Of a stretch of DNA of 64,000 bases, positions 8,024 to 59,493 are shown piece by piece. Each line of letters begins with the position of its first letter. Within the stretch, counting starts at the first letter, position 1. The stretch comes from Blattabacteriaceae bacterium (GTDB taxonomy: Bacteria; Bacteroidota; Bacteroidia; Flavobacteriales; Blattabacteriaceae), in contig DASWCM010000003.1 in the NCBI GenBank assembly GCA_036390115.1, forward strand, positions 101,111-165,110. Reading direction: 5' to 3'. The notes beneath the pieces were generated by a model that made no database searches, had not been told where the DNA came from, and saw only the letters and a program-made list of their open reading frames with translations. Made by a program: the position numbers and the translations under genes.

Positions 8024-8482
8024 ATGAATTTAAGTAGTTTAAACCAAAGCAATAGAAAAAATAAAAAAAAAAGGCTTGGAAGAGGCCAAGGTTCTGGAAA
8101 AGGGGGAACATGTACTAGAGGCCATAAAGGAGCAAAGTCACGTTCAGGAAATTCTAGAAAATTAGGCTTCGAAGGAGGGCAGATGCCCTTGCATAGGAGA
8201 ATACCAAAAGTAGGATTTAAAAAAATTTCTAAAAAAAAGTCTACCGTAATTAATATAGATTTTTTACAGTACCTGGTAGATCAAGGAAGAATTAAGGAAG
8301 GGAAAAACGTATCGAAAAATGTTTTATTAGATTATGGAATAATAGGAAAAAATGATTTTATTAAAATTTTGGGTAGAGGTGAATTAAATGTAAGACTTAC
8401 AATATCAGCACATAAGTTTAGTCATAAAGCTGGAACAGCTATTAAAATTTATGGAGGAAAAATTCTATTTGACAATGTTTGA
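8024..8482 (+). CDS. rplO: 50S ribosomal protein L15
   Basis: I take the internal Met of ORF 7946..8482 as the start: MNLSSLNQSNRKNKKKRLGRGQGSGKGGT is the typical L15 N-terminus. The ATG at 8024 was verified in the sequence. Confidence 0.92.
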   Translation: MNLSSLNQSNRKNKKKRLGRGQGSGKGGTCTRGHKGAKSRSGNSRKLGFEGGQMPLHRRIPKVGFKKISKKKSTVINIDFLQYLVDQGRIKEGKNVSKNVLLDYGIIGKNDFIKILGRGELNVRLTISAHKFSHKAGTAIKIYGGKILFDNV

Positions 8483-9815
8483 ATACTTTTTCAGTTCTAT
8501 TAAAAAGATTTGTAAAATAGAGGATCTCCGCTTTAAGATAGGAATAACTTTAGGGTTTCTTCTAGTTTACAGATTTAGTTCTTATGTTCCACTTCCTGGA
8601 ATAAATCCACAAGGAGTTATTCATTTTATGGAAAATGGAAATACTGGGGAAAAAGGGCTACTGCAAATTATCTATTCGTTTTCTGGAGTAGCTTTTAGTA
8701 GAGCATCTGTTTTGGCTTTAGGAATTATGCCTTTTATATCTTCCTCCATTTTTGTACATTTAATTTCTTTAATTTTTCCTTCTCTTAAAAAAGATGGGGA
8801 GAGTGGCCGAATTAATAGGATTATACGGATGGTAACAATAATAGCTTGTTTTATACAAGCTCCCACTTATTGTGATATTCTTACCACAAAATTTATTCCT
8901 TTTTCCTATGCACCTAAAGCTTATCTCTTGGATCTTTCTATTTCTATGGAAAAAGTTTTTTTTTGGGTTATTTCTATCGTAGTTCTTACAGTTGGCACAT
9001 TTTTCACTATTTGGATAGGGGAAAATATTACGGATAAAGGAATAGGAAATGGGGTTTCTTTGATTATTATGTCTGGTATTGTGGACCGATTTCCTAACGC
9101 TCTTTATACTGAAATAGTTAGTCATTTAGGAGCAAGGGGAGGATTATTTTTTTTGTTTTTTGAATGTTTGTTATGGTTGCTGGTTGTTTGCTTTTGCGTA
9201 ACGTTGATACAGGCTGTAAGGAAAGTCCCCGTTCAATACGTTGGTCGAATTGAACAGAATTCTATACGTTTAATGACTAGACATTATATACCATTAAAGG
9301 TCATTAGTGTAGGCGTTATGCCAATTATATTTGCTCAGTCTATTATGCTTTTTACGATGATTCTTTCTGCTAATTTAAGAGAAACATTTAAAAATGTTTA
9401 TGGGTTTTGGTATAATTTAGTCTTTTCTATTTTTATTATATTTTTTACATTTTTTTATACAGCTGTTACGATTCCAGTTCATCAGATTGCAGATGATCTT
9501 AAAAGGGATGGAGGACATATTCCCAAAGTGAAACCTGGGAAAGAAACTTTGGATTATTTGGATTATATTTTGGCAGTAGTAACTATTCCTGGATCATTTT
9601 TACTAGTTATTATTGCTATACTCCCTTCTTTTATTGTTAAAATAGGGGTTACTAATAATTTAGCTTTATTCTATGGTGGGACTTCCCTACTAATCATAGT
9701 AGGATCTCTTTTAGATACCATGCAGCAGATTGATCCCTATTTTTTAAATGATCATTATGATCATCTTCTTAGCTTGTATCATCAAAAATTATGGATAGGA
9801 ATAAAGAATACATAG
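8475..9815 (+). CDS. secY: Preprotein translocase subunit SecY
   Basis: Multi-pass membrane protein with [34 protein letters not shown] and [10 protein letters not shown] motifs. The start at ATG 8475 is preferred over 8451. It follows rplO. Confidence 0.93.
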
Positions 9816-12934: not shown

Positions 12935-13776
12935 AGATGTTTTTGCCCTTAAAATATTAGATTATACCCACTATTGAAGTGGATGGAAGCAGTGTGAATG
13001 AAATAATTGCTCCATAAATAAAGGGTCTCAAAGTCTTAGAGATCAATTAATGATTGATATTGACGTAACAGAAAATAAAAGTAGTCTTGGAGCTAATGCT
13101 ATTCTTTTCATTAGCTGATGCTAAAGCTGCCTCAGCTTATACTGTTACCATGATGAATATAGTTCCTCCTATTTATTTTCAATAATTTCTGATTGTTCCA
13201 GTATCTGCTAATAGCTTTTCGTAAACTGTTAGAATGGGAGTAACTCTTACGTAGTCTCAGTTGTAGATGAAGGTGGATTTTAATCAAAATTTGATAGTAC
13301 TGAAGAAGCATTAGATGCATAATCCATTGAAAAATCAGGATATAAACCTGTTGAAGAAATAATGCTTGCTTTAGATTGCGCTTCTTCCGAATTTTATTTA
13401 AACGTAAAATATGATTATACTCGTTTTGAAGGGGAAAAAGGTTGTTTACGTTCTAGTGAAGAACAAGTTAATTATTTAATTAAGCTTATTGAAAAGTATC
13501 CAATAATCTCTATTGAATATGGAATGGATCAAAACGATTGGGAAACTTTTAACTGAAAAAAATAGGAAAAAATGTCCAATTAGTAGGGGATGATCTATTC
13601 GTTACAAATCTTTCTAGATTAAAGGAAGGTAGGGTCATAATTATACGAACGATAATGTCTCATCGTTCTGTGAATATTATACGATATATGATTTATCGGT
13701 AGCTTTTAAAACTGGATCAGCTTCTCTCGCATGGCGAAGTATAATCAATTGATAATAATTGAATAAATGCTAGCTT
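12921..13776 (+). pseudogene. eno: Enolase pseudogene (multiple frameshifts, stops and deletions)
   Basis: Enolase-like peptides appear in collinear order but in different frames, separated by stops. They are MSKIKDVFALKILD (ATG 12921), PTIEVD, NKSSLGANAILFIS then [63 protein letters not shown] (ORF 13362..13556), VQLVGDDLFVTN (13574, another frame), MSHRS, and MAKYNQLIIIE stop (13776). Confidence 0.88.
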
Positions 13777-13870
13777 TTTGGGGCTTTGCTTCATTTCTGA
13801 CAGTAGCTTGCTTGTGTAGCTACAAAAAAAATAAGCAAATTAAAGTAAATGTATTAATTTTTCTAAAATT

Positions 13871-14941: not shown

Positions 14942-15837
14942 ATATAATATCAATATTCGGTCCTACAGCTATAGGCAAGACGTATCTTTCAATTTTACTA
15001 GCTAAAACCTTAGGGTTTGAAATTATTTCCTGTGATTCTAGGCAATTTTATAAAGAGCTTGTAATTGGAACAGCTAAACCTTCAAAAGAAGAACTTAAAA
15101 TAGTACCCCACCATTTCATAGAACACTTAAGCGTGTATCAAACCTATAATGCAGGAAGTTTTGAAAGAGATGCTTCAGAAAAGCTAGATGAAATCTTTTC
15201 AAGATCCAATGCAGTATTCGTTGTAGGTGGATCATGTTTATATGGAAAAGCTCTACTTGAAGGTTTAGATATTTTTCCAGAAGTATCTAGCGAAATAAAA
15301 AACTTATGGATTTCATTCTTTCAAAGAAAGGGATTGCATTTTTTACAAGATTCTCTTAAATGGAGAGATCCATGTTATTATAAAACGGTAGACTTGAATA
15401 ATCCACATAGGATGATTCGTGCTTTAAGTGTTATTGAATCTAGTGGGCGTCCGTTTTCTTATTTTCTAAAGAAAAGAAGAAGGAAAAACATAAAGGTTAT
15501 AAAAATTGGTCTTATATTGCCTAGGGTAGAACTTTATAAGAGAATAGATCAAAGAGTAGACAAAATGATAAAAAATGGTTTACTTGAAGAAACGCGTATA
15601 TGGTCTAATTGTAGGCATTTAAATGCCTTAAAAACTATAGGATATAAAGAATTTTTCGATTATCTAGACGGTCATTACGACTTTTATCAGGCTGTAAATG
15701 AAATAAAAAAAAATACTAGGAAATACGCGAAGAAACAAATTACCTGTTTAAGAAAAGATTCTTCTATTCTATGGTTTTCTCCTATAGAATACAAGGAAAT
15801 TTTGAATTTTATTCTAAAAGCACTTTATTCTCTCTAA
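14938..15837 (+). CDS. miaA: tRNA dimethylallyltransferase
   Basis: I take the internal Met as the start ([16 protein letters not shown]-loop). It overlaps the aroC stop as ATGA. Also contains [18 protein letters not shown]. Confidence 0.92.
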
Positions 15838-17145
15838 TCTTAATTTACATTTAAATACGTTCTTGGGATAAAGAGAATCCCAAGAAATACTCATCCAAGT
15901 AAAAATTGGATTTCCCACAATATGGTCTTCGGGTACAAACCCCCAAAAACGAGAATCCAATGAATTATACCAATTATCTCCTATCATGAAATAATAGTTT
16001 TGATTAAAAACATATTCAGAAGTTTCCATGTTGTTAATATAAAATTTTTTTCCTTTTATTTTTAAGTAGTTATTTTCATATATATTTATAATGTCTTTAT
16101 ACAGGTTGATATTATCATAATTTAGCATTACATGATCTCCTTTCTTAGGAATTTTTAACGGCCCGTAAAAGTCTAAATTCCAACTAAAATTTTTATTTCC
16201 TAAAAATTTTTGACTTTTGTATATTGGGAGAATATATCTGTTTACAGATCCTACTTCATTAAGGGTTCTGATTAATTTAGCTTCTAATTCTGTAAGCATT
16301 ATTTTGTTTAGAGACCTTAAGGTACTAAGAATATATAAATATTTTCTTTTTACATTTTTGGACAATCTTTCTTTTTTACCATTTATAAATAAAATAGATC
16401 TACGTATTTCTACAGTCTCTCCCGAAATAGCGATACATCGTTTTATATAATGATCTTTTCTATCTATCTCGGTATAAGATGAATGGGGAAAATTGAATAC
16501 GATAATATCAGAACGTTTAATGTTAGTTAAAGATGGAATACGCAGGTAGGGTAATCTGATCCACTTTAAATAAGTACGAATGCCAAAAAATGGTAATCTG
16601 TTATGCAAAAGTGGTAAACTTATTGGAGTTATTGGTAATCGTAATCCATAGTGGATTTTACTTACAAAAATAAAATCTCCAACTAATAAAGTTTTCTCCA
16701 TAGAAGAGGTTGGTATGGTAAATGGCTGAATAAGATATATGTGAATAAAAGATGATAAAATTATAGAAGAGAGAAAAATTGAAAAAATGGGCTCTTTTTT
16801 TGGAGCAAAAAAATTTATATTATTATTATAGTTAAAATAAAAAATATATAAACCTAATGTTAGGATTACTAGAATATAGTCTCTTTTCCTAGTTTTTCCA
16901 AAACATCGAATAAAATCAATCCATAATAGAGGGAACATTACTGTGCAAATAATTGGGACAAAGAAAATTGGAACCCAATAAATTGGACGATTAACAATTT
17001 TTAGTAATATAAAAATATTGTAAAAAGGCAAAGCAGCTTCCCAAGATTTTCTTCCAGCTTTTTTATATAACCTATAAGTTCCCAGAAAATGAATTCCTAG
17101 TATGATAAAAAAGACAAGAATATAATTACTCATAATCAAAAACAT
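15814..17145 (-). CDS. lepB: Signal peptidase I (long Bacteroidota-type)
   Basis: 443 aa. PFTIPTSSMEKTLLVGDFIFVSK (catalytic Ser box), YIKRCIAISGE, GDNWYNSLDSRFWGFVP, and an N-terminal YKKAGRKSWEAALPFYN segment. Confidence 0.9.
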   Translation of the reverse strand: MFLIMSNYILVFFIILGIHFLGTYRLYKKAGRKSWEAALPFYNIFILLKIVNRPIYWVPIFFVPIICTVMFPLLWIDFIRCFGKTRKRDYILVILTLGLYIFYFNYNNNINFFAPKKEPIFSIFLSSIILSSFIHIYLIQPFTIPTSSMEKTLLVGDFIFVSKIHYGLRLPITPISLPLLHNRLPFFGIRTYLKWIRLPYLRIPSLTNIKRSDIIVFNFPHSSYTEIDRKDHYIKRCIAISGETVEIRRSILFINGKKERLSKNVKRKYLYILSTLRSLNKIMLTELEAKLIRTLNEVGSVNRYILPIYKSQKFLGNKNFSWNLDFYGPLKIPKKGDHVMLNYDNINLYKDIINIYENNYLKIKGKKFYINNMETSEYVFNQNYYFMIGDNWYNSLDSRFWGFVPEDHIVGNPIFTWMSISWDSLYPKNVFKCKLRLERIKCF

Positions 17146-27489: not shown

Positions 27490-27496
27490 CAAACTT

Positions 27497-27870
27497 TTGA
27501 AGATATTTTTTTATTATGTTTCCTTTCTTCTCTTTTTTTTTAGAGCTTCTCCGCCTAAATCAAATAATTTTGATCCATCTAAGGGCATCTTAGATAATAT
27601 AAAAGATTCTCATGAATGGCATCTTTTTGTAAAAGAAAAGATAATTTATCTTCCGATAATTTTATGGTATAGAGGGTTTCGTATTTTTCTTTCGTCATGA
27701 TTTAATCATGGAAATAAATTCATAGAAGGCAATCATTGCTACTACAGATTCTTTAAAGAAAGAATCTACAAAACTAATTATTACAGCTGCTTAGTTTTCT
27801 ATTTACCCAAAACCCACATTGAAATATTGGCAATCTTTTATTTTTACAGCTTTATCTTCTTTGTGGAATG
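27497..27870 (+). pseudogene. atpB: ATP synthase F0 subunit a remnant (in-frame stop, then most of the gene deleted)
   Basis: ORF 27497..27700 has a TTG start and reads ..FDPSKGILDNIKDSHEWHLF..IIYLPIILWYRGFRIFLSS. A TGA at 27698 is followed in the same frame by FNHGNKFIEGNHCYYRFFKERIYKT. From memory this matches the conserved N-terminal segment of Bacteroidota AtpB (..DSH....LPLPVILW..GL..F.SSKF.HG....GNH....IYKT). The C-terminal roughly 250 aa are absent. Boundaries are approximate. Confidence 0.6.
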
Positions 27871-27879
27871 ACTCTTGTG

Positions 27880-27995
27880 GAACATCATCAGCTAGAAGAG
27901 TATAATCGCTACAGAAGCTTCTGTCAGGCATTTATGATCTCTTAGATATGTTCTTAAATAGCAATTTATGTTATGGATTTGTTCCGTTGGTTTAA
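27880..27995 (+). pseudogene. atpE: Possible ATP synthase F0 subunit c remnant
   Basis: There are short frame-broken matches to the c-subunit core. IIATEAS resembles AIARQPEAS. SG.. and FMIS.. in neighbouring frames resemble MIIAAAL. The fragment lies between the atpB and atpF remnants as in atpBEFH. Evidence is weak. Confidence 0.35.
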
Positions 27996-28340
27996 TTATT
28001 TGGCAAAAAATTATTTTTATTATTTTATTAGTTTTACTAAGGAGATTTGCTTGGAGTATCTTATAGAAATTATTGAAAAACGCGAAAAAAAATATTCTCT
28101 GACTTAGAGAGACAAGCTCTTAAAAAAGAGAAAATTTTAAGAGAAGCTTGCATAGAACGAGATTTTCTTTTAAAAGAGGCTCTCTCCATAAAAGATAGAG
28201 TTAGAGGAAAAATCCCAAATTGAAAGGATGCTTGAACAAGCTATATAGGTTATAAAAACCGATAAATCTGTTGCTAGAGTTTTCGTCCTTGAAAAAGTTT
28301 GTTGTGGAGAGTTGTGTAGAAGAAGATTATGTCTGTGTGT
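27996..28340 (+). pseudogene. atpF: ATP synthase F0 subunit b remnant (frameshifted, with stops)
   Basis: LIIWQKIIFIILLVLLRRFAWSIL then a stop (frame of tgg at 28001). A different frame, starting at 28083, reads RKKIFSDLERQALKKEKILREACIERDFLLKEALSIKDRV. This matches the Bacteroidota AtpF pattern FWQ..IF..LL.LL.KFAWKPIL...RE..I...L..A......L.EA..ERD.ILKEA..IK. Confidence 0.6.
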
Positions 28341-28379
28341 AGGTCCTTCACGATAAGCCTGTCAAAGAGCAATCGATAT

Positions 28380-28893
28380 TATAGTCCTAATAGTATGATA
28401 GGAGGAGATACAGCCTAGCAATTGACATTATCCTTAATAAAAAAAGACTTTATGAAAGTGGTAATCCCATATATTGTACATAAGTCAAAAAGGTACTGGT
28501 AAAAACTCTTATAGATCATGGGGGGGATGGACAAATTTTTCTTGAGTCAGATTTGTTCAATGCTGTACAGCAATTAATGAAGGAACTAGGGAGAAGCTCA
28601 GATTGCATCGATGAAAAAACTATCTGGAACATTTAAATTGGATGAGGGATTTTCCAAATTTAGTTCTGATTTAGATACCACAACTTTATCAATAATTCAT
28701 AAAGGTCGTTGGAATGTATAAATCAAGCAATTAATTCACTAGATAAAATATCTGATCAAATAGCACTTGTATATGCGAGTACAAAAAATCATTATTCGTT
28801 GTATTTTCCTATAATAAAGGATTATTTGGAACTTTTAACACTTCCATCTTCTGGATGAAGGAAAATTTTTTAAAGACAAAATCTTCCAAATAA
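28380..28893 (+). pseudogene. atpH: Possible ATP synthase delta subunit remnant
   Basis: Collinear weak matches: RRRYSLAIDIIL resembles the N-terminal [40 protein letters not shown] resembles the central L..LL.EN.R...L..I...F segment. The C-terminal FNTSIFWMKENFLKTKSSK stop resembles Y(D/N)ASV...L..LK..L. All are broken by stops. Confidence 0.3.
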
Positions 28894-29358
28894 ATTCATA
28901 TAATGATATAGGAAAAAAAGGAATATATTTTAAAAAAAAATATAAAATATTAAACGAAAATAAAATTTAGAAAATATCTCTTCTGTAAAAGAAACTTACG
29001 CAAAAGTTTTTTAACATGGATTTTTTATCAATATATTTAGTGTATAATACACCAAAAAGTCTGAAATATCACATTATAAAGCAATGCTACTTTATCATCT
29101 GGAGCAGATATTAACTTTCTTTTTGAACCTTCAAAAGAAAGAATTTTTGATTATATTATATCAATGATATTAAGAATAAATTTTATCAAAGCTTTTTTGG
29201 AATCAACTGTATAGGAAAATACAGCTTGAATGACATCCATGAATATAGCAACTGAAAATGCCTCATATTTAAAATATGAGCTAACATTGAGATATAACAA
29301 AATAAGACAAGAAGCTATTACCAAAGATATTTTATAACTTATTGGAGTAACAAAAAAA

Positions 29359-30318: not shown

Positions 30319-30331
30319 TTTATTAAAGAAC

Positions 30332-30830
30332 ATGGATAGAGAAAGAATGATAAAATTTTTAAAGGAAATTTATATATCCCGGGTAGTAGATTAATATTGT
30401 AGATAATCAATCTCTTATTGATATTTTTTTTTAGGAGATTGTGCTTGCTTAGAAAGCGCAAAAAAAAAACTTTAATATGATATTCCTAAAGCAAGGAACA
30501 CAAAAATAAAAATTAATACAGTAATTACTCATCAGAGTCTGGAGTAAAAGTATATAATACTTCTGAGTAAATATTCCATAACTTATCTAAAATGGGTGTG
30601 ACGTTTATAGGCCTTCTATTCCTATAATGTTTAATTAGGAAAATGTTTTCTATCTTTAGATAAGGAAAAGAAAAAATAAAACCTTATGAAAATTATGGAG
30701 TAAAGATGTTATCTTTAGGTTTTTTGCTCATATTAGCAGTTTTATGACGTGCTATTAAAGCATTGAAAGAGATTCTTATTGGGGTTTTAGTTGTATGGGG
30801 GCTAAAGGAGCTATACTTGGAATAGGATAA
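30332..30830 (+). pseudogene. pdhA: Possible pyruvate dehydrogenase E1 alpha remnant (tentative)
   Basis: Stop-riddled fragments lie at roughly the spacing expected for E1 alpha. MDRERMIKFLKEIYISRVVD (30332) resembles Y..M...R.FE. VITHQSLE (30521) resembles ITAYR.H. GKCFLSLDKEKKK (30638) resembles GGSMH.F.KE. YENYGVKMLSLGFLLILA (30685, shifted frame) resembles YGG.GIVG.Q..LG.G.AFA. ALKEILIGVLVVWGL resembles L.E..N.A.LW.LP. Identities are low. Confidence 0.35.
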
Positions 30831-31056
30831 AATATGGCTTTTTTAAAAATAAAAGAAAAAATATTTTACATTTGGAAAAAATGGGCTAAAAAACTTTCTA
30901 TTGAACTTGTCTCTCTTCATGCCAATAAAGTTTAAAAAAAAATTTTTAAAAATATTTTACTAGGCTAAAAAGCAATAAATTTATTTTTTTCTTTCTAAAA
31001 AGAGATCTTTTTGCAACCTTTCACACAATTCGTACATTTGAGTAAATGAAAGAAAA

Positions 31057-36654: not shown

Positions 36655-36741
36655 TATATATGGTAACGATTTTTTGCTAAACGAATATAAATTGATTTAA
36701 TCTAAGGTAATATGGGAATTCTTGAAAAGAGAAAACATTTT

Positions 36742-36981
36742 ATGTTTCTTTATGTATTTTTGGCGGTAATTCTTATTTTTACTTGTTTACTACTTACCGT
36801 AGTGATAACAATACAAAATCCTAAAAGAGATTCTCTTTCTTATTCTTCTTTAGGAGATAAAAGCATTCAAATATTCGGGGTTCAACGTGTTATAAATTTT
36901 TGGGAAAAGCTTACTTGTATTTTAGCGATTTTAATTTTTATTTTTATTTATTTTTTTAATAAAATTTTAAAAAACAGATAG
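36742..36981 (+). CDS. secG: Preprotein translocase subunit SecG (probable)
   Basis: Small two-TM protein directly upstream of groES. VVITIQNPKRDSLS resembles the flavobacterial SecG motif V.QNPKGGGLS. ..FGVQRVINFWEKLTCILAILIF resembles GV.K..DFL...TW.LA. The start could also be 36712. Confidence 0.65.
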   Translation: MFLYVFLAVILIFTCLLLTVVITIQNPKRDSLSYSSLGDKSIQIFGVQRVINFWEKLTCILAILIFIFIYFFNKILKNR

Positions 36982-44581: not shown

Positions 44582-45002
44582 GTTTGTTATGGCTTTATAC
44601 TATATTTTTTCATTTAAATATGAAATGTAAGTAACAGAGAAAATTCTTTTTATTTTTGTTTAATAAATATTTGCATATTCATATTACGTTTTTTATGGGG
44701 GTAAATATATTGGTAAATTGTATGGTTAAAGATTCTAATGGTAGACAGATAGAGAAACTTCTAATGTTATTTGGGCAATCGTGCACTAATAGATGGTTTT
44801 GATTCTTACAAAATAGAAAAGGTATTAGTGGATTCTTTCAATCGTGTATTCCTCAGCCTGCTATCCTTGGTATAAGGTAAAGAAATGCATCCTAAAGATA
44901 TGGAAGCTGTTTACTAAATTTAGTGTCACTCTATGAAGTTGGAAGGAATAGAATGATAACTTTAACAAGTTGGATCATTCATAGAAGTCTTATTATTAAT
45001 AG

Positions 45003-47022: not shown

Positions 47023-47889
47023 TTATTGATAGATCATTTGAATAATTTTGCCAATATTATTATAACGGCCCATAGTATAATAATGAATTATTTCTACTCC
47101 AGAATCTTTTAATTCTTTAGATTGTTTTAGCCCCCATTCTATTCCTATTTTTTCTATATATTTTTCGTTTTTAGCTTCTTTTACAAGCTCATTTGGAAGA
47201 GCTACATAAAAATTATATGGCAAACGTTTTAAATGATATTTGCAGTATATTGGTTTAATACCTGGAATTATTGGTAAGGATATACCTTTCTCTCTGCAGA
47301 TTTTGACAAATTCAAAATATTTTTTGTTCTCAAAAAACATTTGAGTTATTATATAATTAGCCCCAGCTTCAATTTTTTTATTTAGATAATGTAAATCCAT
47401 TTCTGGATTAGGAGATTCAAAATGTTTTTCAATATATCCAGCTACTCCAAGACATAAATCAAATGTTTTACTATTTATAGTATCAGGTACTTGCTTCAGT
47501 AAATCCAGGGCATATAATTTTTTTTTACCCACTTTTTCGCAGTTGATAGAATCGCCTCTTAGGCAGAATAAATTTTCTATTCCCATAAACTGGAGGTTCA
47601 TAAAAGTATCTTCGATGTTATTCTTGTAAAATACAGAAGAAAGCAAATGAGGGACAGTTTCAACATTATATTTTTTCGTTACAGCAGCACAACTCCCTAT
47701 AGTTCCTTGCCTACTTTTTCTAAAACACTCAGAACGATGATAGGTAATATTGATAAAGGGTGGATAAAATTCCATTAAAGAATCTAAAGTATCGAAAACA
47801 ATTTCTATTGATCCCTTAAAGAGAGGAGGAAGTATTTCAAAGGAAAATAATGTTTTTTTAGTTCTGGTAATATGTTCAATTACTTTCAT
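47023..47889 (-). CDS. metF: 5,10-methylenetetrahydrofolate reductase
   Basis: 288 aa. FSFEILPP start, CLRGD, ANYIITQMFF and GIPIIPGIKP motifs. Confidence 0.88.
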   Translation of the reverse strand: MKVIEHITRTKKTLFSFEILPPLFKGSIEIVFDTLDSLMEFYPPFINITYHRSECFRKSRQGTIGSCAAVTKKYNVETVPHLLSSVFYKNNIEDTFMNLQFMGIENLFCLRGDSINCEKVGKKKLYALDLLKQVPDTINSKTFDLCLGVAGYIEKHFESPNPEMDLHYLNKKIEAGANYIITQMFFENKKYFEFVKICREKGISLPIIPGIKPIYCKYHLKRLPYNFYVALPNELVKEAKNEKYIEKIGIEWGLKQSKELKDSGVEIIHYYTMGRYNNIGKIIQMIYQ

Positions 47890-49179: not shown

Positions 49180-49398
49180 ATGTCTAAAATTTGTCAAATA
49201 ACAGGAAAACGATTGATTATAGGAAATAGGGTTTCTCATTCCAATAAAAAGACGAAGCGTTATTTCAGTATTAACATAAGTAAGAAGAGATTTTTCCTAA
49301 CATCTGAGGATCGTTGGATTACTCTGAAAGTTTCAGCTTCAGGGATAAAGACCATAAATAAGGTGGGTATAGAGAAAGCTTTGAAAAAAAAAACGTAA
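49180..49398 (+). CDS. rpmB: 50S ribosomal protein L28
   Basis: [11 protein letters not shown]...[12 protein letters not shown] start. Confidence 0.95.
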
Positions 49399-49399
49399 G

Positions 49400-49585
49400 G
49401 TGTCTAAAAAAAAATCTAATAGGATCCAAGTGATCCTTGAGTGTATGGAGCATAGAAGAAGTAATATTCCTGGAATATCTCGTTATATAACGATGAAAAA
49501 TAGGAAGAATACGCTTAATAGAATGGAATTAAAAAAATATAATCCCATTCTTAGAAGACATACTATACACAAAGAGATAAAGTAA
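49400..49585 (+). CDS. rpmG: 50S ribosomal protein L33 (GTG start)
   Basis: (M)[17 protein letters not shown]...[33 protein letters not shown]. Confidence 0.95.
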
Positions 49586-49592
49586 TCTCATT

Positions 49593-49730
49593 ATGAAAAA
49601 AAAAAAGTGCAAGGTAATTATTTTTTTTAAATCTTCTAAAACGAAAGCTTATTCTTTCGAAGAAAGGATCCTTGATGCGGATCAAGTGAGCATTTTCTTG
49701 GATGATAAAAAACGAGAAAATACAAAATAA
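49593..49730 (+). CDS. Small basic protein, DUF4295-like (45 aa)
   Basis: Absent from the ORF track. My translation is MKKKKCKVIIFFKSSKTKAYSFEERILDADQVSIFLDDKKRENTK. From memory, its position right after rpmB-rpmG and before ftsY, and the K..K..K.GAY.F.E......V..FL pattern, fit the Bacteroidota DUF4295 family. Confidence 0.45.
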   Translation: MKKKKCKVIIFFKSSKTKAYSFEERILDADQVSIFLDDKKRENTK

Positions 49731-49738
49731 AAATAAAT

Positions 49739-50533
49739 ATGAGTATTTATGGAAATTTATTCTCATCTGCAAAAAATCTTTTAAATAGAGGCCTATAAAA
49801 CTAGGATTCTTTTTTTTTTCTAATTTGGAAAAAATTATAATAGGAAAATCTAAGATAGAGGAAAAATTCCTAGAGTAGGTGTTGATTTATTCTGATGTTG
49901 GAGTAAAGACTAGTCTAAAAATCATTTAAAATATAAAAAATATCGCAGAAAAAGATAAATACTTGAACCTTGAAGACATTCAAGGTCTTCCTTAAGGAAG
50001 AAGTCTATTTGCTTTTGTAAGAAAAAGAAATTCCTAGCAAAGGGTCATTATGATTGTTGGGAGTGTTCAATTACTGGAAAATTAGCCTGGAAGTTTAAAA
50101 AATCCAGGCTTAAGATTTGTCAGATCGTGCAGAAGTTCCTTTAATAAAACATAATATGGGATCTGATCCAGCTTCAGTAGCTTTTGATACGCTCAGCTAA
50201 ATATAGAAAGGATGATCTAGTTTTAATAAATACGGCAGTACGGTTGCATAATAAAGTAAATCTTCTGAAAGAGCTTTCTAAAATTAAACGAGTTATGCAA
50301 AAATTGATTCCTAAAGCTCCACAGTAGGTAATGCTAGTCTTAGATGGAACTATCGGACAGAATTCTTTTGAACAAGTGTACTGGAGTTTATTCTTTAGCA
50401 ATCACAAAACTAGATGGCTCTGCTAAGGGAGGAATTTTTGATTAAGATACCGATAAAGTATCTTGGAATAGGAGAGGGACAACCTTTCGATAGAGATTTG
50501 TTTATTGATTCACTTTTCAATAAAGAATATTAG
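49739..50533 (+). pseudogene. ftsY: SRP receptor FtsY pseudogene
   Basis: Collinear FtsY peptides appear in several frames, broken by many stops. They are MSIYGNLFSSAKNLLNRGL stop, GKSKIEEKFLE, SDVGVKTSLKII stop, GSDPASVAFDTLS stop, ITKLDGSAKGGIFD stop, and IKIPIKYLGIGEGQPFDRDLFIDSLFNKEY stop. The GxxGxGKT and DTAGR regions are unrecognisable. Confidence 0.88.
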
Positions 50534-50650
50534 TTGTCCTAATCCTAATAATAAGGAAAAAATTAGAGTAATTATAGACACTTTATTAAATTCAGAAGAA
50601 AATTTTTTCTCTTCTTTCGTTAGAATAACTTTTTTAATATGAATTTCCAT
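50510..50650 (-). CDS. Hypothetical 46-aa ORF with C-terminal hydrophobic segment (may be noise or a ghost fragment)
   Basis: My translation of the reverse strand is MEIHIKKVILTKEEKKFSSEFNKVSIITLIFSLLLGLGQLIFFIEK. No family recognised. Confidence 0.15.
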   Translation of the reverse strand: MEIHIKKVILTKEEKKFSSEFNKVSIITLIFSLLLGLGQLIFFIEK

Positions 50651-50800
50651 AGGAAAAAATAATCTTAAAAAGATAAATTGATAGATATTCCTAGGATTTT
50701 TTTTTCATTAACTTTAAGCCTCAAGGCTCCAAAAACTATTAAAGTATGGTATATTTTAGCTACTAATCTTGCTGCTAAAGTATTCTTACCATTTTTTATA

Positions 50801-51097
50801 TCACTTTTTATATCTATTATTTAAGTTTAGAACTTCCATACTTAAAAGACCTACAGAGGCAGCAGGTAGAAAAAGATCATATTCAAAATATATGAGAAGA
50901 TAGATAAAAAGTTCCATTAACGTAACTAATCCAAAAAAAATTAACACAGAGACATTTACCACATATTGATAAGGGCCTATAGTGTATTTTATTGCTCCTA
51001 CATTACCAAAAATGGTAAAAGATTGGGATCTTAAAATTGAAGAATAAATAATAGATATAAAAATTAATAAGTAGATATACTTTATCATTTTTTGCAT
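50801..51097 (-). CDS. Hypothetical hydrophobic protein, 98 aa (possibly a gene remnant)
   Basis: ORF-track protein with a signal-peptide-like N-terminus (MQKMIKYIYLLIFISIIYSSILRSQ) and a further hydrophobic stretch. No family recognised. It sits in an otherwise eroded region. Confidence 0.3.
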   Translation of the reverse strand: MQKMIKYIYLLIFISIIYSSILRSQSFTIFGNVGAIKYTIGPYQYVVNVSVLIFFGLVTLMELFIYLLIYFEYDLFLPAASVGLLSMEVLNLNNRYKK

Positions 51098-51218
51098 AAC
51101 TATTTTTTATCCACGTAGTCATTAGAAAAATTGTGATAGCTGACCAAAAAAAACTTTACACTTAGCTTTCCTCCTACCTAAAGGTAGGATCAAATCTTTC
51201 ATAGCTTAAATAGTTAAG

Positions 51219-51294
51219 TGACCTCGGAGGGACTTGAACCCCCAAACCTTCTGATCCGTATTCAGATGCTCTCTCCAAATTAAGCTACGAGGCC
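51219..51294 (-). tRNA. tRNA-Arg (anticodon ACG)
   Basis: The reverse complement folds. Acceptor ggcctcg/cgaggtc, D arm tagcttaatttggagagagc, anticodon stem tctga/tcaga, loop atACGga, T arm. No encoded CCA. Confidence 0.88.
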
Positions 51295-51735
51295 TCGTAG
51301 CTTAAAGTATAATAAAAAATTCATATTGATGCAAGTTTTAGATAAACCTAGAATAATAAATGTTCTTCCTCTTATGATAGGAGATAGTAAGGCAAGAGTA
51401 ATGCTTTATTTTGTATAAATCATAGATACTACTAATAGTAAATATGTTACCAATTCTATAACATCTATTTTTAAAAAATTTACACTTCTATAAGCCGTAG
51501 AATACGGAGCTGTAATGATTCACGATTCATCTGTAGGTGAGGTTAGTCGTTTAAAACGACCATTTAAAAATAAAAATTATTTTCTCTTTTAAAAGATAAG
51601 GGAATTAATTTATTTATCACATAGATTTACGTTTTATTAGTATCTATCTTTAATGGCCCTATACAATTTTTTTTCATCTCGAAGAGATCAAAAATTCGTT
51701 ACTTTGCATTTTTATTTTTTTATTCGGGTAGACAG

Positions 51736-51757
51736 TTCCAAAGAAGCTTCTTTGGAA
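51736..51757. repeat. Perfect 22-nt palindrome ttccaaagaag/cttctttggaa, 44 nt upstream of the rpsU start
   Basis: Read directly from the sequence. The first 11 nt are the exact reverse complement of the last 11 nt, and the flanking bases do not extend it. Confidence 0.95.
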
Positions 51758-51800
51758 AAGTGCATAGAATTAATCAATATAGGTAAAAAAATCAATAAAT

Positions 51801-56614: not shown

Positions 56615-58515
56615 TTAAATATTTTTAAAAAAATTAATTTCTTTTCTTAGAAAGTCTAGAAAGAGACTTATCGAAATAGATCCCAAATTTCCTATTATAT
56701 GTCGGCGTATAGAGATGATACCTTTTTCTTGTTCAAAATCTCCAATTACTCCTAAAATAGGTATTTTATAGTTCTCTGCGTCTCTAATTTTTTTTGATAT
56801 ATTTTCATTTCTCTCATCCAAGAGAGCCCTAACACCATAAATATATAGCAAATCTAAAACTTTTTTTGCAAATTTAAGATTTTTTTTTTTATTGTTAGCA
56901 ACATAACTTGGGTTGGTGCAAGCCAAAGTGGTAGATTTCCTACCGTGTGTTCCAAAAGAATAGCTGAAAATCTCTCCAAAGAACCAAAATGTGCACGATG
57001 AATTATAACTGGTCGATGAAACTTATTATCTATTCCTTTATAAGATAAATCAAAACATTCAGGTAGATTGTAGTCCACTTGGATGGTACCTAATTGCCAA
57101 TTTCTACCTAGAGAATCTTTAACCATAAAATCTAGTTTAGGTCCATAGAAAGCTGCTTCTCCATATGCTAAAATAGTTTTTAAGTTTTTCATTCTTGAAG
57201 AGTGAATAATAGCTTCTTCTGATTTTTTCCAATTTTCTTCAGAACCTATATAAGAATTTCTCTTGTCTCTTAGAGATATTTTTGCCGTATATTCTTTAAA
57301 TCCAAAGACCCTAAATACATAAAAGATCATATCAATCACTTTTTGAATTTCAACTGACAACTGATTTTGTGTGCAAAATATGTGTGCATCATCTTGAGTA
57401 AAGGATCTAGTACGAGAAATCCCATGTAACTCTCCGCTTTTTTCATAACGATATACCGTACCGAATTCAGCTAAACGTTTTGGCAAATCTCTGTATGAGA
57501 ATTTTTTATTTCGATAAATTTCACAGTGATGTGGACAATTCATTGGCCTTAAAAGAAATTCCTCTTCTTTATTAGGAGTCCTTATTGGTTTAAAAGAATT
57601 TTTTCCATACTTTTTCCAGTGCCCTGAAGTTTCATAAAGTATTTTATGCCCAATATGGGGCGTGGTCACCATTTCATACCCAGATTTTTTTTGCAACTTT
57701 ATTAGAAAATTTTCCATAAGTTTAAGTAAGTCAGTACCTTTAGGAAGCCATAATGGCAATCCAAGTCCTACCCGTTCAGAAAAAATAAATAAACCAAGTT
57801 CTTTACCTAATTTCCTATGATCACGCTTTTTAGTTTCCTCCAAAATAAGAAGATACTCTTCTAAATATTCTTTTCTAGGGAAAGAAATACCGTAAATACG
57901 GGTAAGCTGTTCATTTACCTTCCAATAGGATCCTGATGTATTGATAATTTTTACTGATTTTATCAATCCAGTATGCGGAATATGTACGCCCAGGCATAAA
58001 TCTGTGAAATCTCCATAAGTGCAAAAAGTAATAACTTGAAAACTTTCGATTAATTCAATTTTATATTTGTTTCCTTCATAATGTTTTATAGCTTCATTTT
58101 TTGAAAATGTATCACTTTTAAAAGTGTTTGATTTTAGAGCGTTTTCCAGAATTTTTTTCTCAATCTTATGGAAATCTTTTAAATGAGCTTCTCCAAAATC
58201 TATATCATAGTAAAACCCATTATCAATGGGATTACCAATATGTAAATTTGCTTTAGGATAAAAATTTAAAAGAGCTTGAGTTAACAAATGAGCTGAAGAA
58301 TGCCAAAAAGCCTTTTTACCTAGGGCATTATCCCATGTATAAAAAGATAATTCAGAATCTTCGAAGATTTCTATATCAAATTCAACTTGTTGTCCGTTAA
58401 GACTGGCTGATAAAACTCTTTTTGAAAAACTGTGACTAATACCTTTAATTATTTTAGCGGGAGTTATTCCTTTGGAATACTTTCTAACCTTTCCATAAGT
58501 AAAACGAATCATCAT
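56615..58515 (-). CDS. thrS: Threonyl-tRNA synthetase, reading frame interrupted in an A11 tract (ORFs 56854..58515 and 56615..56926)
   Basis: The N-terminal ORF carries the TGS, editing and class II catalytic core (..HRPVIIHRAHFGSLERF..LWLAPTQVMLLTIKKK) and stops 8 codons after the tract. The anticodon-binding domain (NLKFAKKVLDLLYIYGVRALLDERNENISKKIRDAE..KIPILGVIG) continues in another frame. The frames switch at the plus-strand T11 run 56880..56890. Confidence 0.9.
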
Positions 58516-58534
58516 ATTTTTCGAATTATTTTCT

Positions 58535-59280
58535 TTATATACTGAAATTTTTCAAAAGATCATCTACTTCTTCGATAGAATTTCCAGATCCTTTGGAAAT
58601 ACGAATATTGCGATTTTCATTTATGAGTTATGGATTTTTACGTTCTTTTTCCGACATAGAGTATATAATTGATTCGGTCTTTATCCCCTTTTAAGTCAAT
58701 TTAATGAAAAATATTTCCCATACCCATCACATATTTTTAACCTTATGAATTTGACTTAAAAAATCATTAAGATCAAATTTATTTTGATCAATCTTCCTTC
58801 TTATGCTTGTTCTTTACTAAATTACTCATTAACTTTTTACACCATAGAGATTACATCCTCCATTACAAGGAGGCTTTTCGCTATTATAGCAGTATAGAAA
58901 ATATCTAAATACTCTTACAGTTCCAATAAACTTTATTGGCTTTTTATAAATGGAACAAACTGTGAGTATAGCATCATACTCCGTTAAAATACAGTACATC
59001 TTTAAAATTTTTTGCAGTATTAGCAGAATCTTGTCCATTCATAGCATCTACAATAAAAAGGCTTTCGGATGGACGAATCGCTTTATAAATACGCTCCATT
59101 TCATCCATCATTACTTTCAATCTTCCAGCTGGATCAATAATTAGCACGTCATAATTACCTTCTTTAGCAAAAGCGACAGACTATCCAAGAACTTTTATTT
59201 TCTGAATAGCTGCTGGTCTGTTGTCGATAGAAGTGTTTTTTTTCTTTTTTTTCTAACTTCCATTATACTTTATTAAACAA
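58535..59280 (-). pseudogene. ffh: Signal recognition particle protein Ffh pseudogene (5'-truncated, frameshifted)
   Basis: Reverse-strand translation gives several Ffh peptides. KKNTSIDNRPAAIQKIKVLG then a stop. FAKEGNYDVLIIDPAGRLKVMMDEMERIYKAIRPSESLFIVDAMNGQDSANTAKNF, where DTAG reads DPAG. LTEYDA..KKPIKFIGT (ORF 58829..59038). DFLSQI, and RNIRISKGSGNSIEEVDDLLKNFSI then a stop. The frames are broken by stops, and the N-domain and P-loop region are missing. Boundaries are approximate. Confidence 0.85.
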
Positions 59281-59493
59281 CTCTAAGTAATTCTCATCTT
59301 TACAATTAAGAATAAAATATTCAAAAATATCTGTGTTAATACAGAATTTCCAACTTATTTTCCTACCCTAATTTGGTGTACTTAATTTCTTGCCTTAAAT
59401 AAGTAATATTGTAGCATTGATGTAGAGCTTTTCTATTTTTCAGATAAAAATTAGTTTATCAATAACATAAAAGATTCTATGTAGTGTAGGCAT

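Follow-up and report, generated by a model that had tools for sequence, protein, structure and literature searches.

The stretch of DNA analysed here (the window; 64,000 nucleotides of contig DASWCM010000003.1 from assembly GCA_036390115.1 of a Blattabacteriaceae bacterium) carries, at positions 49739–50533 of the forward strand, a degenerate copy of ftsY, the gene for the receptor of the signal recognition particle (SRP). The window is AT-rich (approximately 29–34% GC) and has a dense housekeeping content which includes ribosomal protein operons, secY, groESL, and aminoacyl-tRNA synthetases. Upstream of the ftsY remnant and on the same strand are three intact genes, rpmB (49180–49398), rpmG (49400–49585), and a gene of the DUF4295 family (49593–49730), all found in the same order in the relatives of this bacterium. 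From the DUF4295 gene to the tRNA gene at 51219–51294 there is no open reading frame (ORF) of more than about 100 amino acids; the longest in the ftsY region has 47, where an intact frame would have about 300. What is left of ftsY amounts to 795 bp of approximately 945 bp and extends from the orthologous ATG (49739) to the orthologous TAG (50531–50533). These are exactly the coordinates given for an ftsY pseudogene in an earlier interpretation of this DNA made without database searches (the sequence-only reading).

Identity and decay of ftsY

Landmarks of FtsY occur in all three forward frames of the region 49586–50700 and have stop codons between them, as the sequence-only reading had described. 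Among those that can still be read are VLIYSDVGVKTSLKII, VIMIVG, ITGKLAWKFKK, MGSDPASVAFD, NTAVRLHNKVNLLKELSKIKRVMQK, LVLDGTIGQN, ITKLDGSAKGG, and IPIKYLGIGEG..FDRDLF. The stop-masked conceptual translation matches FtsY proteins containing PF02881 and PF00448 with an E value of 2.8e-108. The seven best FtsY matches are intact proteins of the same clade, 301–314 amino acids long and all with both domains, which share 68–72% identity with the gapped query. Intact ftsY orthologs for comparison were available from the loci L004 (945 bp), L002 (930 bp), and L085 (906 bp), the last of which was the sole locus obtained from a DNA pattern search in rpmG across metagenome contigs. The identity of the relic over the aligned columns is 94% with L004, 92% with L002, and 93% with L085. 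The slot is likewise conserved, since the order serS, rpmB, rpmG, DUF4295, ftsY, menA (convergent), tRNA, rpsU, and mnmE is found on the contigs to which three of the seven proteins were traced (L002/L003, L004, and L085). On the grounds of both similarity and gene neighbourhood, the relic belongs by descent to the FtsY family (PF02881 SRP54_N plus PF00448 SRP54).

The closest relatives of the window represent four lineages which have their gene order in common with it and whose intact genes are 90–95% identical to its own at the nucleotide level; two of the loci, L099 and L004, derive from one common sample. The relatives' largest contigs measure 249,223–250,603 bp in four independent assemblies. 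Contigs of the window lineage have been recorded at 219,645, 208,875, 202,365, 155,480, and 147,290 bp, the largest of them being about 30 kb shorter than the relatives' genomes. This suggests that the genome of the window lineage (about 220 kb) is some 30 kb smaller, in line with additional gene loss. The size and composition of the genome, taken with its NCBI family label, lead us to infer a clade of tiny-genome symbionts. Outside the clade, the next-nearest proteins are 61–70% identical and belong either to free-living Flavobacteriales or to insect symbionts with larger genomes. For MnmE, the contig matches listed came from free-living Bacteroidota at about 46–52% identity. The insect-associated names in this range of identity are 'Flavobacteriales bacterium AspAUS03', 'Bacteroidetes bacterium endosymbiont of Geopemphigus sp.', 'Flavobacteriales bacterium Tduv', and Walczuchella, and their presence among the nearest proteins is a hint at the type of host. 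One of the relatives, P0003/L003 (ENA ERZ27259835, a 249,251-bp contig), is labelled in NCBI as 'Candidatus Angelobacter sp.', a genus placed under Acidobacteriota. This label is ill-suited to a 249-kb genome of the Flavobacteriales type and is probably a taxonomic mislabel of a metagenome-assembled genome (MAG).

Alignment of positions 49739–50536 with L004, L002, and L085, from which events were extracted automatically, identified 10–11 deletions and 2–3 insertions (13–15 indels) together with 4–5 nonsense substitutions, a count of the kind that the sequence-only reading had called for. The deletions comprise 2, 9, about 19, 16, 55, 5, 17, 12, 5, and 12 bp, along with a probable 1-bp loss near 49806, and total approximately 153 bp. 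Insertions of 1 bp were found at 49832 and 49990, with a probable third in a T run near 49820. The length can be accounted for in full, as 945 − 153 + 3 gives the observed 795 bp. In the ancestral frame, nonsense substitutions are present at 49876 (GAG>TAG), 49927 (GAA>TAA), 50018 (CAA>TAA), and 50325 (GAT>TAG), while a fifth at 49821 is doubtful, being located in an ambiguously aligned stretch. The first disabling lesion is a 2-bp deletion (49794–49798) which creates a TAA at 49796, so that the native ORF is over after 19 codons. The tally shows a shrinkage by the deletion-biased and A/T-biased mutation typical of host-restricted bacteria, in that the loss of some 153 bp is set against a gain of about 3 bp and each of the five nonsense changes introduces a T.

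The lesions also affect the motifs on which a GTPase depends. The P-loop (G1) has been lost to the 16-bp deletion at 50065 (junction 50062–50067), which removed GVNGVGKT, and the G2 region to the 55-bp deletion at 50113 (junction 50112–50115), which removed ..IGATDTFRAAAIDQL.. (the DTFRAAA segment). The G3 motif DTAGR is degenerate and reads NTAVR (50229–50243; GAT>AAT, GGA>GTA). The destruction of the P-loop and of DTAGR had both been noted by the sequence-only reading. In contrast to these, the G4 motif TKLDG (50404–50418) is still readable, after which there is a 12-bp deletion within AKGGFIIGI, as is the C-terminal GIGEG (GxGE motif; 50465–50479), which is also followed by a 12-bp deletion. 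TKLDG and GIGEG are legible but fall in different frames. Lacking G1 and G2 and with an altered G3, the relic cannot encode a GTPase.

At sites where the three relatives agree, 35 of 705 positions in ftsY carry substitutions specific to this lineage. By codon position these are distributed as 15/240, 9/245, and 11/220 (6.3, 3.7, and 5.0% at positions 1, 2, and 3), although the total is only 35 and some are beside indels. In nine intact neighbouring genes the corresponding values are 3.7%, 2.2%, and 6.7%, which is the usual bias. With few substitutions to go on, the direction of the pattern in ftsY is that expected under neutral evolution. The lost codon-position bias and the higher rate at positions 1 and 2 would fit neutral evolution of ftsY over a substantial part of the time since this lineage and the sampled relatives diverged, perhaps one third to one half of the branch, a rough figure given the small number of substitutions.

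Judged by orthology and synteny, indels, nonsense codons, the loss of G1–G3, and the spread of substitutions over codon positions, ftsY in this lineage is a real pseudogene, at an early stage of a fairly recent decay. Such losses are nothing unusual for genomes of this type. All four sampled sister genomes (about 250 kb), as well as free-living Flavobacteriia, keep a working FtsY. The ancestor possessed one too, and the gene was disabled on the branch leading to the present genome.

Parallel decay of ffh and of other genes

The partner gene ffh, some 8 kb from ftsY, is found at 58512–59256 on the minus strand and is likewise a pseudogene. Its first 366 nucleotides or so, which encode the N domain and the P-loop, are gone along with anything that was left of argS. 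Further on, DPAGR stands in place of DTAGR, and a deletion has taken the G4 motif. The remainder contains nine deletions (10, 63, 9, 32, 8, 7, 25, 8, and 1 bp; 163 bp in all) and five nonsense substitutions. A fragment of the product matches the Pfam SRP54 model with an E value of 1.8e-14, and the same 57-residue piece has been called as a gene in three assemblies. In the relatives ffh is intact (422–424 amino acids) and adjoins thrS. Lineage-specific substitutions were found at 43 of 702 sites, close to the value for ftsY, which supports the view that ffh and ftsY decayed in parallel and to the same degree. With ffh as dead as ftsY, this lineage has lost both protein components of SRP targeting; neither gene is functional at its native locus, and both died on this branch.

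The sequence inspected comprised the window and its 10-kb flanks, i.e., approximately 84 kb of the genome of about 220 kb. An SRP RNA of the RF00169 type was detected neither in the window (gathering score, E≤5) nor in the 10-kb flanks (E≤1). As ffs was likewise not located in the loci of the SRP-positive relatives, this negative result carries little weight.

Several components of the Sec machinery are still open. The secY gene (8451–9815, plus strand) encodes 454 amino acids and matches PF00344 over the full model length at 5.3e-80. The signal peptidase I gene lepB (15814–17145, minus strand) encodes 443 amino acids with the motif GDN..S.DSR, and Peptidase_S26 is assigned to the identical JGI gene. 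The secG gene (36712–36981, plus strand) encodes 89 amino acids, with PF03840 on the identical JGI gene and a product of 87 amino acids in L098. A gene for an MscS-like channel and, in the left flank, ftsH are also open, and secA, secE, and yidC were not found within the 84 kb. The sequence-only reading was thus right that a decayed ffh lies nearby, that the two SRP genes are eroding side by side, and that secY, secG, and lepB are intact. A wider erosion, described below, was missed by it.

The decay of ftsY and ffh is not specific to SRP, as an ATP synthase operon, NDH-2, menA, enolase, and argS have, by comparison with relatives or by domain matches, evidently decayed in the same lineage. 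The atpB-E-F-H-A-G operon is represented at 27490–29358 (plus strand) by colinear fragments, detected with blastn, which amount to 1.87 kb of 4.65 kb and contain no open frame. The loci L098 and L099 have six intact atp genes (4.65 kb) between tkt-C and trpS, and the F1Fo ATP synthase has apparently been lost in the window lineage. Of NDH-2 (Pyr_redox_2), intact in L003 and L004 (426–428 amino acids) between aroB and tRNA/aspS, only about 150 bp are left at 44695–44848. The gene convergent with ftsY, which codes for a menaquinone prenyltransferase (menA/UbiA family; 50530–51202, minus strand), has approximately 13 deletions, one insertion, and 21 in-frame stops, while it is intact in L002, L004, and L085 (283–285 amino acids). 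Pfam searches with short fragments, taken from the 27.5–29.2 kb gap and from the menA relic, yielded no significant match, and the identity of the atp fragments was established from the relatives instead. An enolase pseudogene at 12935–13870 (plus strand) was judged without a relative's locus; its fragment 13323–13553 matches Pfam Enolase_C at 2e-17, and the JGI gene call covers only a 64-residue piece. Finally, a deletion scar of about 240 bp between ffh and sucD (59257–59493, minus strand) marks the site of argS. The gene is intact (568 amino acids) and adjoins ffh in L002 and L004 (from about 20200 onward), and it is a 1.2-kb pseudogene in L093 (11017–12238), so that it looks as if members of the clade have been losing an aminoacyl-tRNA synthetase in parallel.

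Two further observations concern the clade as a whole. The metF gene (MTHFR) is split in L002/L003 (7241–8099) and in L085 (790–1657) into ORFs of 125 and 132–135 amino acids, and is intact in L004 as well as in the window (47023–47889; 288 amino acids). Each lineage of the clade thus has its own set of decaying genes. Non-coding gaps of approximately 0.5–0.7 kb are present in the window at 30319–31056 and 51295–51800; these are gene-free in the relatives also (L098 10969–11962; L002 11778–12184) and may be older, fully eroded pseudogenes common to the clade.

Order of events and alternative explanations

The best overall explanation, to which we assign a probability of about 0.9, is that 49739–50533 is the relic of the single syntenic ftsY, dead together with ffh and part of a lineage-specific erosion. 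The loss of ftsY would then be one item in a burst to which the F1Fo ATP synthase operon, NDH-2, the menaquinone prenyltransferase, enolase, and argS fell victim as well. A number of the lost genes encode inner-membrane proteins of the kind classically served by SRP and YidC, or depend on such proteins. In the most likely sequence, energy metabolism and much of the membrane proteome would first have become dispensable, presumably because they were supplied by a host. The benefit of co-translational targeting could subsequently have fallen under the level that can be maintained against drift, with ffh and ftsY disappearing more or less together. The few membrane proteins that are left (SecY, SecG, LepB, the MscS-like channel, and FtsH) would be inserted without SRP, a situation which slow translation could make tolerable.

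Several points weigh against this explanation. SecY, FtsH, and the MscS-like channel still need to be inserted, so that a relaxed selection on SRP is not self-evident. The relics do not reveal the order of events, as their identities to orthologs are all about 90–96% and lesions are similarly dense in ftsY, menA, and ffh. That clients were lost first and SRP later has only its plausibility, and the position of ftsY as the least shrunken relic, to recommend it. The putative host association is founded on the genome size, composition, and NCBI family label mentioned above. Furthermore, a second ftsY, ffs, secA, secE, and yidC were searched for directly only within the 84 kb.

The reverse order of events is the strongest of the alternatives, although we consider it unlikely. 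In that case, drift would have killed ffh or ftsY first, and polytopic membrane proteins (ATP synthase a/b/c, MenA, and others) would have become uninsertable, hence useless, and decayed in turn. It is compatible with ftsY, ffh, and menA having indistinguishable lesion densities and substitution levels, from which it does not follow which of them died first, and with the F0 subunits and polytopic proteins being clients of SRP and YidC (PMC3268725). The length lost by each relic points in the opposite direction: ftsY has lost 16%, menA 22%, ffh 42%, the atp operon 60%, ndh 88%, and argS more than 90%. If deletion accumulates over time, the greater loss suggests that the atp, NDH-2, and argS relics are older. 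Ranking the relics by age from substitution identity was tried as well and gave no discrimination. Moreover, the loss of enolase and ArgS, which are both cytosolic, cannot be a consequence of missing SRP, and secY, lepB, and secG are still open even though SecY is itself a membrane protein.

It is much less probable that SRP function has been kept, with an intact ftsY (and ffh) located elsewhere in the genome or the function provided by the host or a co-symbiont, and with the relic being a redundant copy. The inspected portion of the genome leaves room for such genes, and compensation by a host or partner is commonly proposed for tiny symbionts (PMC12188211). The relic, however, occupies the single syntenic ftsY slot of all relatives, and neither partner of the pathway survives at its native locus. 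Among the FtsY proteins found in a database of 5.8 billion clusters, none comes from a contig whose length matches those known for this lineage; the longest contigs of the seven clade FtsY proteins are 75,792, 1,499, 249,251, 250,603, 7,000, 1,298, and 24,826 bp. As a rule, gene duplicates are essentially absent from genomes this small.

Two technical or mechanistic explanations deserve hardly any credit. The first, raised as an objection in the sequence-only reading, is that the gene is really intact and that its apparent stops and frameshifts arose as errors of sequencing or assembly in an AT-rich region of low complexity. Copies of the window proteins are found verbatim in NCBI ('MAG TPA: ... 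[Blattabacteriaceae bacterium]'), in JGI 3300012200 and 3300012208, and in Logan assemblies, and protein look-ups with L27 and IF-1 returned matches from this lineage only, adding independent assemblies. Over the 795 bp of the relic there are no differences in JGI 3300012200 and one (at 49820) in JGI 3300012208, and the 39-residue tail ORF of ftsY is called in both. The window differs from both JGI assemblies at a few other positions, so that at least three assemblies agree on the relic. Homopolymer lengths do differ between assemblies nearby, at 49384 and 56880, but most of the ftsY lesions are deletions of 5–55 bp outside homopolymers, four are clean base substitutions, and neighbouring genes on the same contigs are open. 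With the same relic present in assemblies from different samples and most lesions being multi-base deletions outside homopolymers, assembly error is excluded; the lesions identified against intact orthologs are reproducible across independent assemblies. The difference at 49384, at the end of rpmB, causes rpmB and rpmG to be fused into a 134-residue call in JGI 3300012200. The two are separate in the window and in JGI 3300012208, an example of assembly noise limited to homopolymers; position 49701 is listed with 49384 as a site of such noise. An alternative genetic code was also considered and rejected, as the neighbours are all open under table 11, the stops are TAA and TAG, and frameshifts are present too.

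The second, just as remote, is that the broken ftsY still yields a functional product, be it by programmed frameshifting, by slippage during transcription, or as a protein made in pieces. Endosymbiont genes with frameshifts can indeed be rescued where slippage occurs at poly(A) tracts (PMC3971599), and thrS in the window is a candidate frameshift of this type, yet in ftsY the essential GTPase motifs are gone or mutated, there are 4–5 nonsense codons, and most indels are outside homopolymers. The thrS gene (56615–58515, minus strand) is split at a long homopolymer near 56880 into ORFs of 546–553 and 78 amino acids, the latter containing the anticodon-binding domain. The split is present in all assemblies of the lineage, with a run of 11 or 10 depending on the assembly, while the relatives have one ORF of 628–635 amino acids. 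The split could be a genuine frameshift for which slippage compensates or, alternatively, the onset of decay.

Significance and comparison with known systems

The SRP and its receptor are among the most conserved machines in biology and are essential in E. coli. Genomes without SRP are usually seen long after the loss; here both genes can still be read, and the lesions can be assigned by comparison with orthologs that are 92–94% identical. We propose tentatively, and with somewhat less than even confidence, that this lineage and its sisters of about 250 kb constitute a natural before-and-after pair, in which ffh and ftsY were lost within approximately 7–8% divergence together with the F1Fo ATP synthase, NDH-2, and the menaquinone prenyltransferase, while SecY, SecG, and LepB were kept. 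If this is true, a rapid burst of erosion would be documented in a clade of tiny Flavobacteriales symbionts from environmental metagenomes. If, in addition, complete genomes show a membrane and energy bias among the pseudogenes, this would be direct comparative evidence that SRP is dispensable once its main clients are gone. With several client and energy systems at the same stage of decay, it can be tested which functions are lost jointly and in which sequence. A further question is by what route SecY, FtsH, and the rest of the retained membrane proteins enter the membrane without SRP. With respect to annotation, the public 39- and 57-residue 'genes' of this lineage are pseudogene fragments, and neither an SRP pathway nor an ATP synthase should be attributed to these MAGs.

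Some of this has precedent, in that the loss of SRP in other tiny symbionts and the decay of trafficking, envelope, and energy genes in Walczuchella are already known (PMC3971599, PMC12188211). What is new here is a different clade, with both SRP genes caught early and with intact sister genomes, which gives the case a modest special value.

Compared with the canonical flavobacterial FtsY (about 317 amino acids, PF02881 plus PF00448, e.g., P0027), the relic is approximately 50% identical to free-living homologues over its readable parts and has the rpmB-rpmG-DUF4295-ftsY synteny in common with them, but it lacks an open frame and its G1–G3 motifs are destroyed. Mutants of Streptococcus mutans in ffh or ftsY are viable without SRP (PMC8546722), and in E. 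coli the loss of SRP is suppressed by slower translation (PMC7844537, PMC8299109). These might be a plausible analogue of life without SRP where YidC-type insertases or slowed translation compensate, although they are laboratory mutants of free-living bacteria and no yidC was located here within the 84 kb. Carsonella and Portiera also have extremely reduced genomes and possess neither ftsY nor ffh (PMC4122945). They are, however, Gammaproteobacteria in which the genes have gone without trace, whereas in the present lineage recognisable relics persist and secY, secG, and lepB are kept.

The nearest parallel is 'Candidatus Walczuchella' of giant scale insects (289–309 kb, about 32% GC), which is likewise a tiny, pseudogene-rich Flavobacteriales symbiont with the same functional categories hit. 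Most of its 11 COG-U genes have been lost or pseudogenised (PMC12188211); its atpA/B/G have become pseudogenes, it lacks aminoacyl-tRNA synthetases, and an episode in which pseudogenes formed at an accelerated pace has been proposed (PMC3971599, PMC12188211). The main texts of these two papers do not explicitly name ftsY and ffh. The window lineage is not Walczuchella, as its SucD is 67% identical to that of Walczuchella and about 70% identical to those of free-living Flavobacteriales. In contrast to Walczuchella, the present clade has smaller genomes (approximately 220–250 kb), and intact sisters at 92–93% identity allow the lesions to be read base by base.

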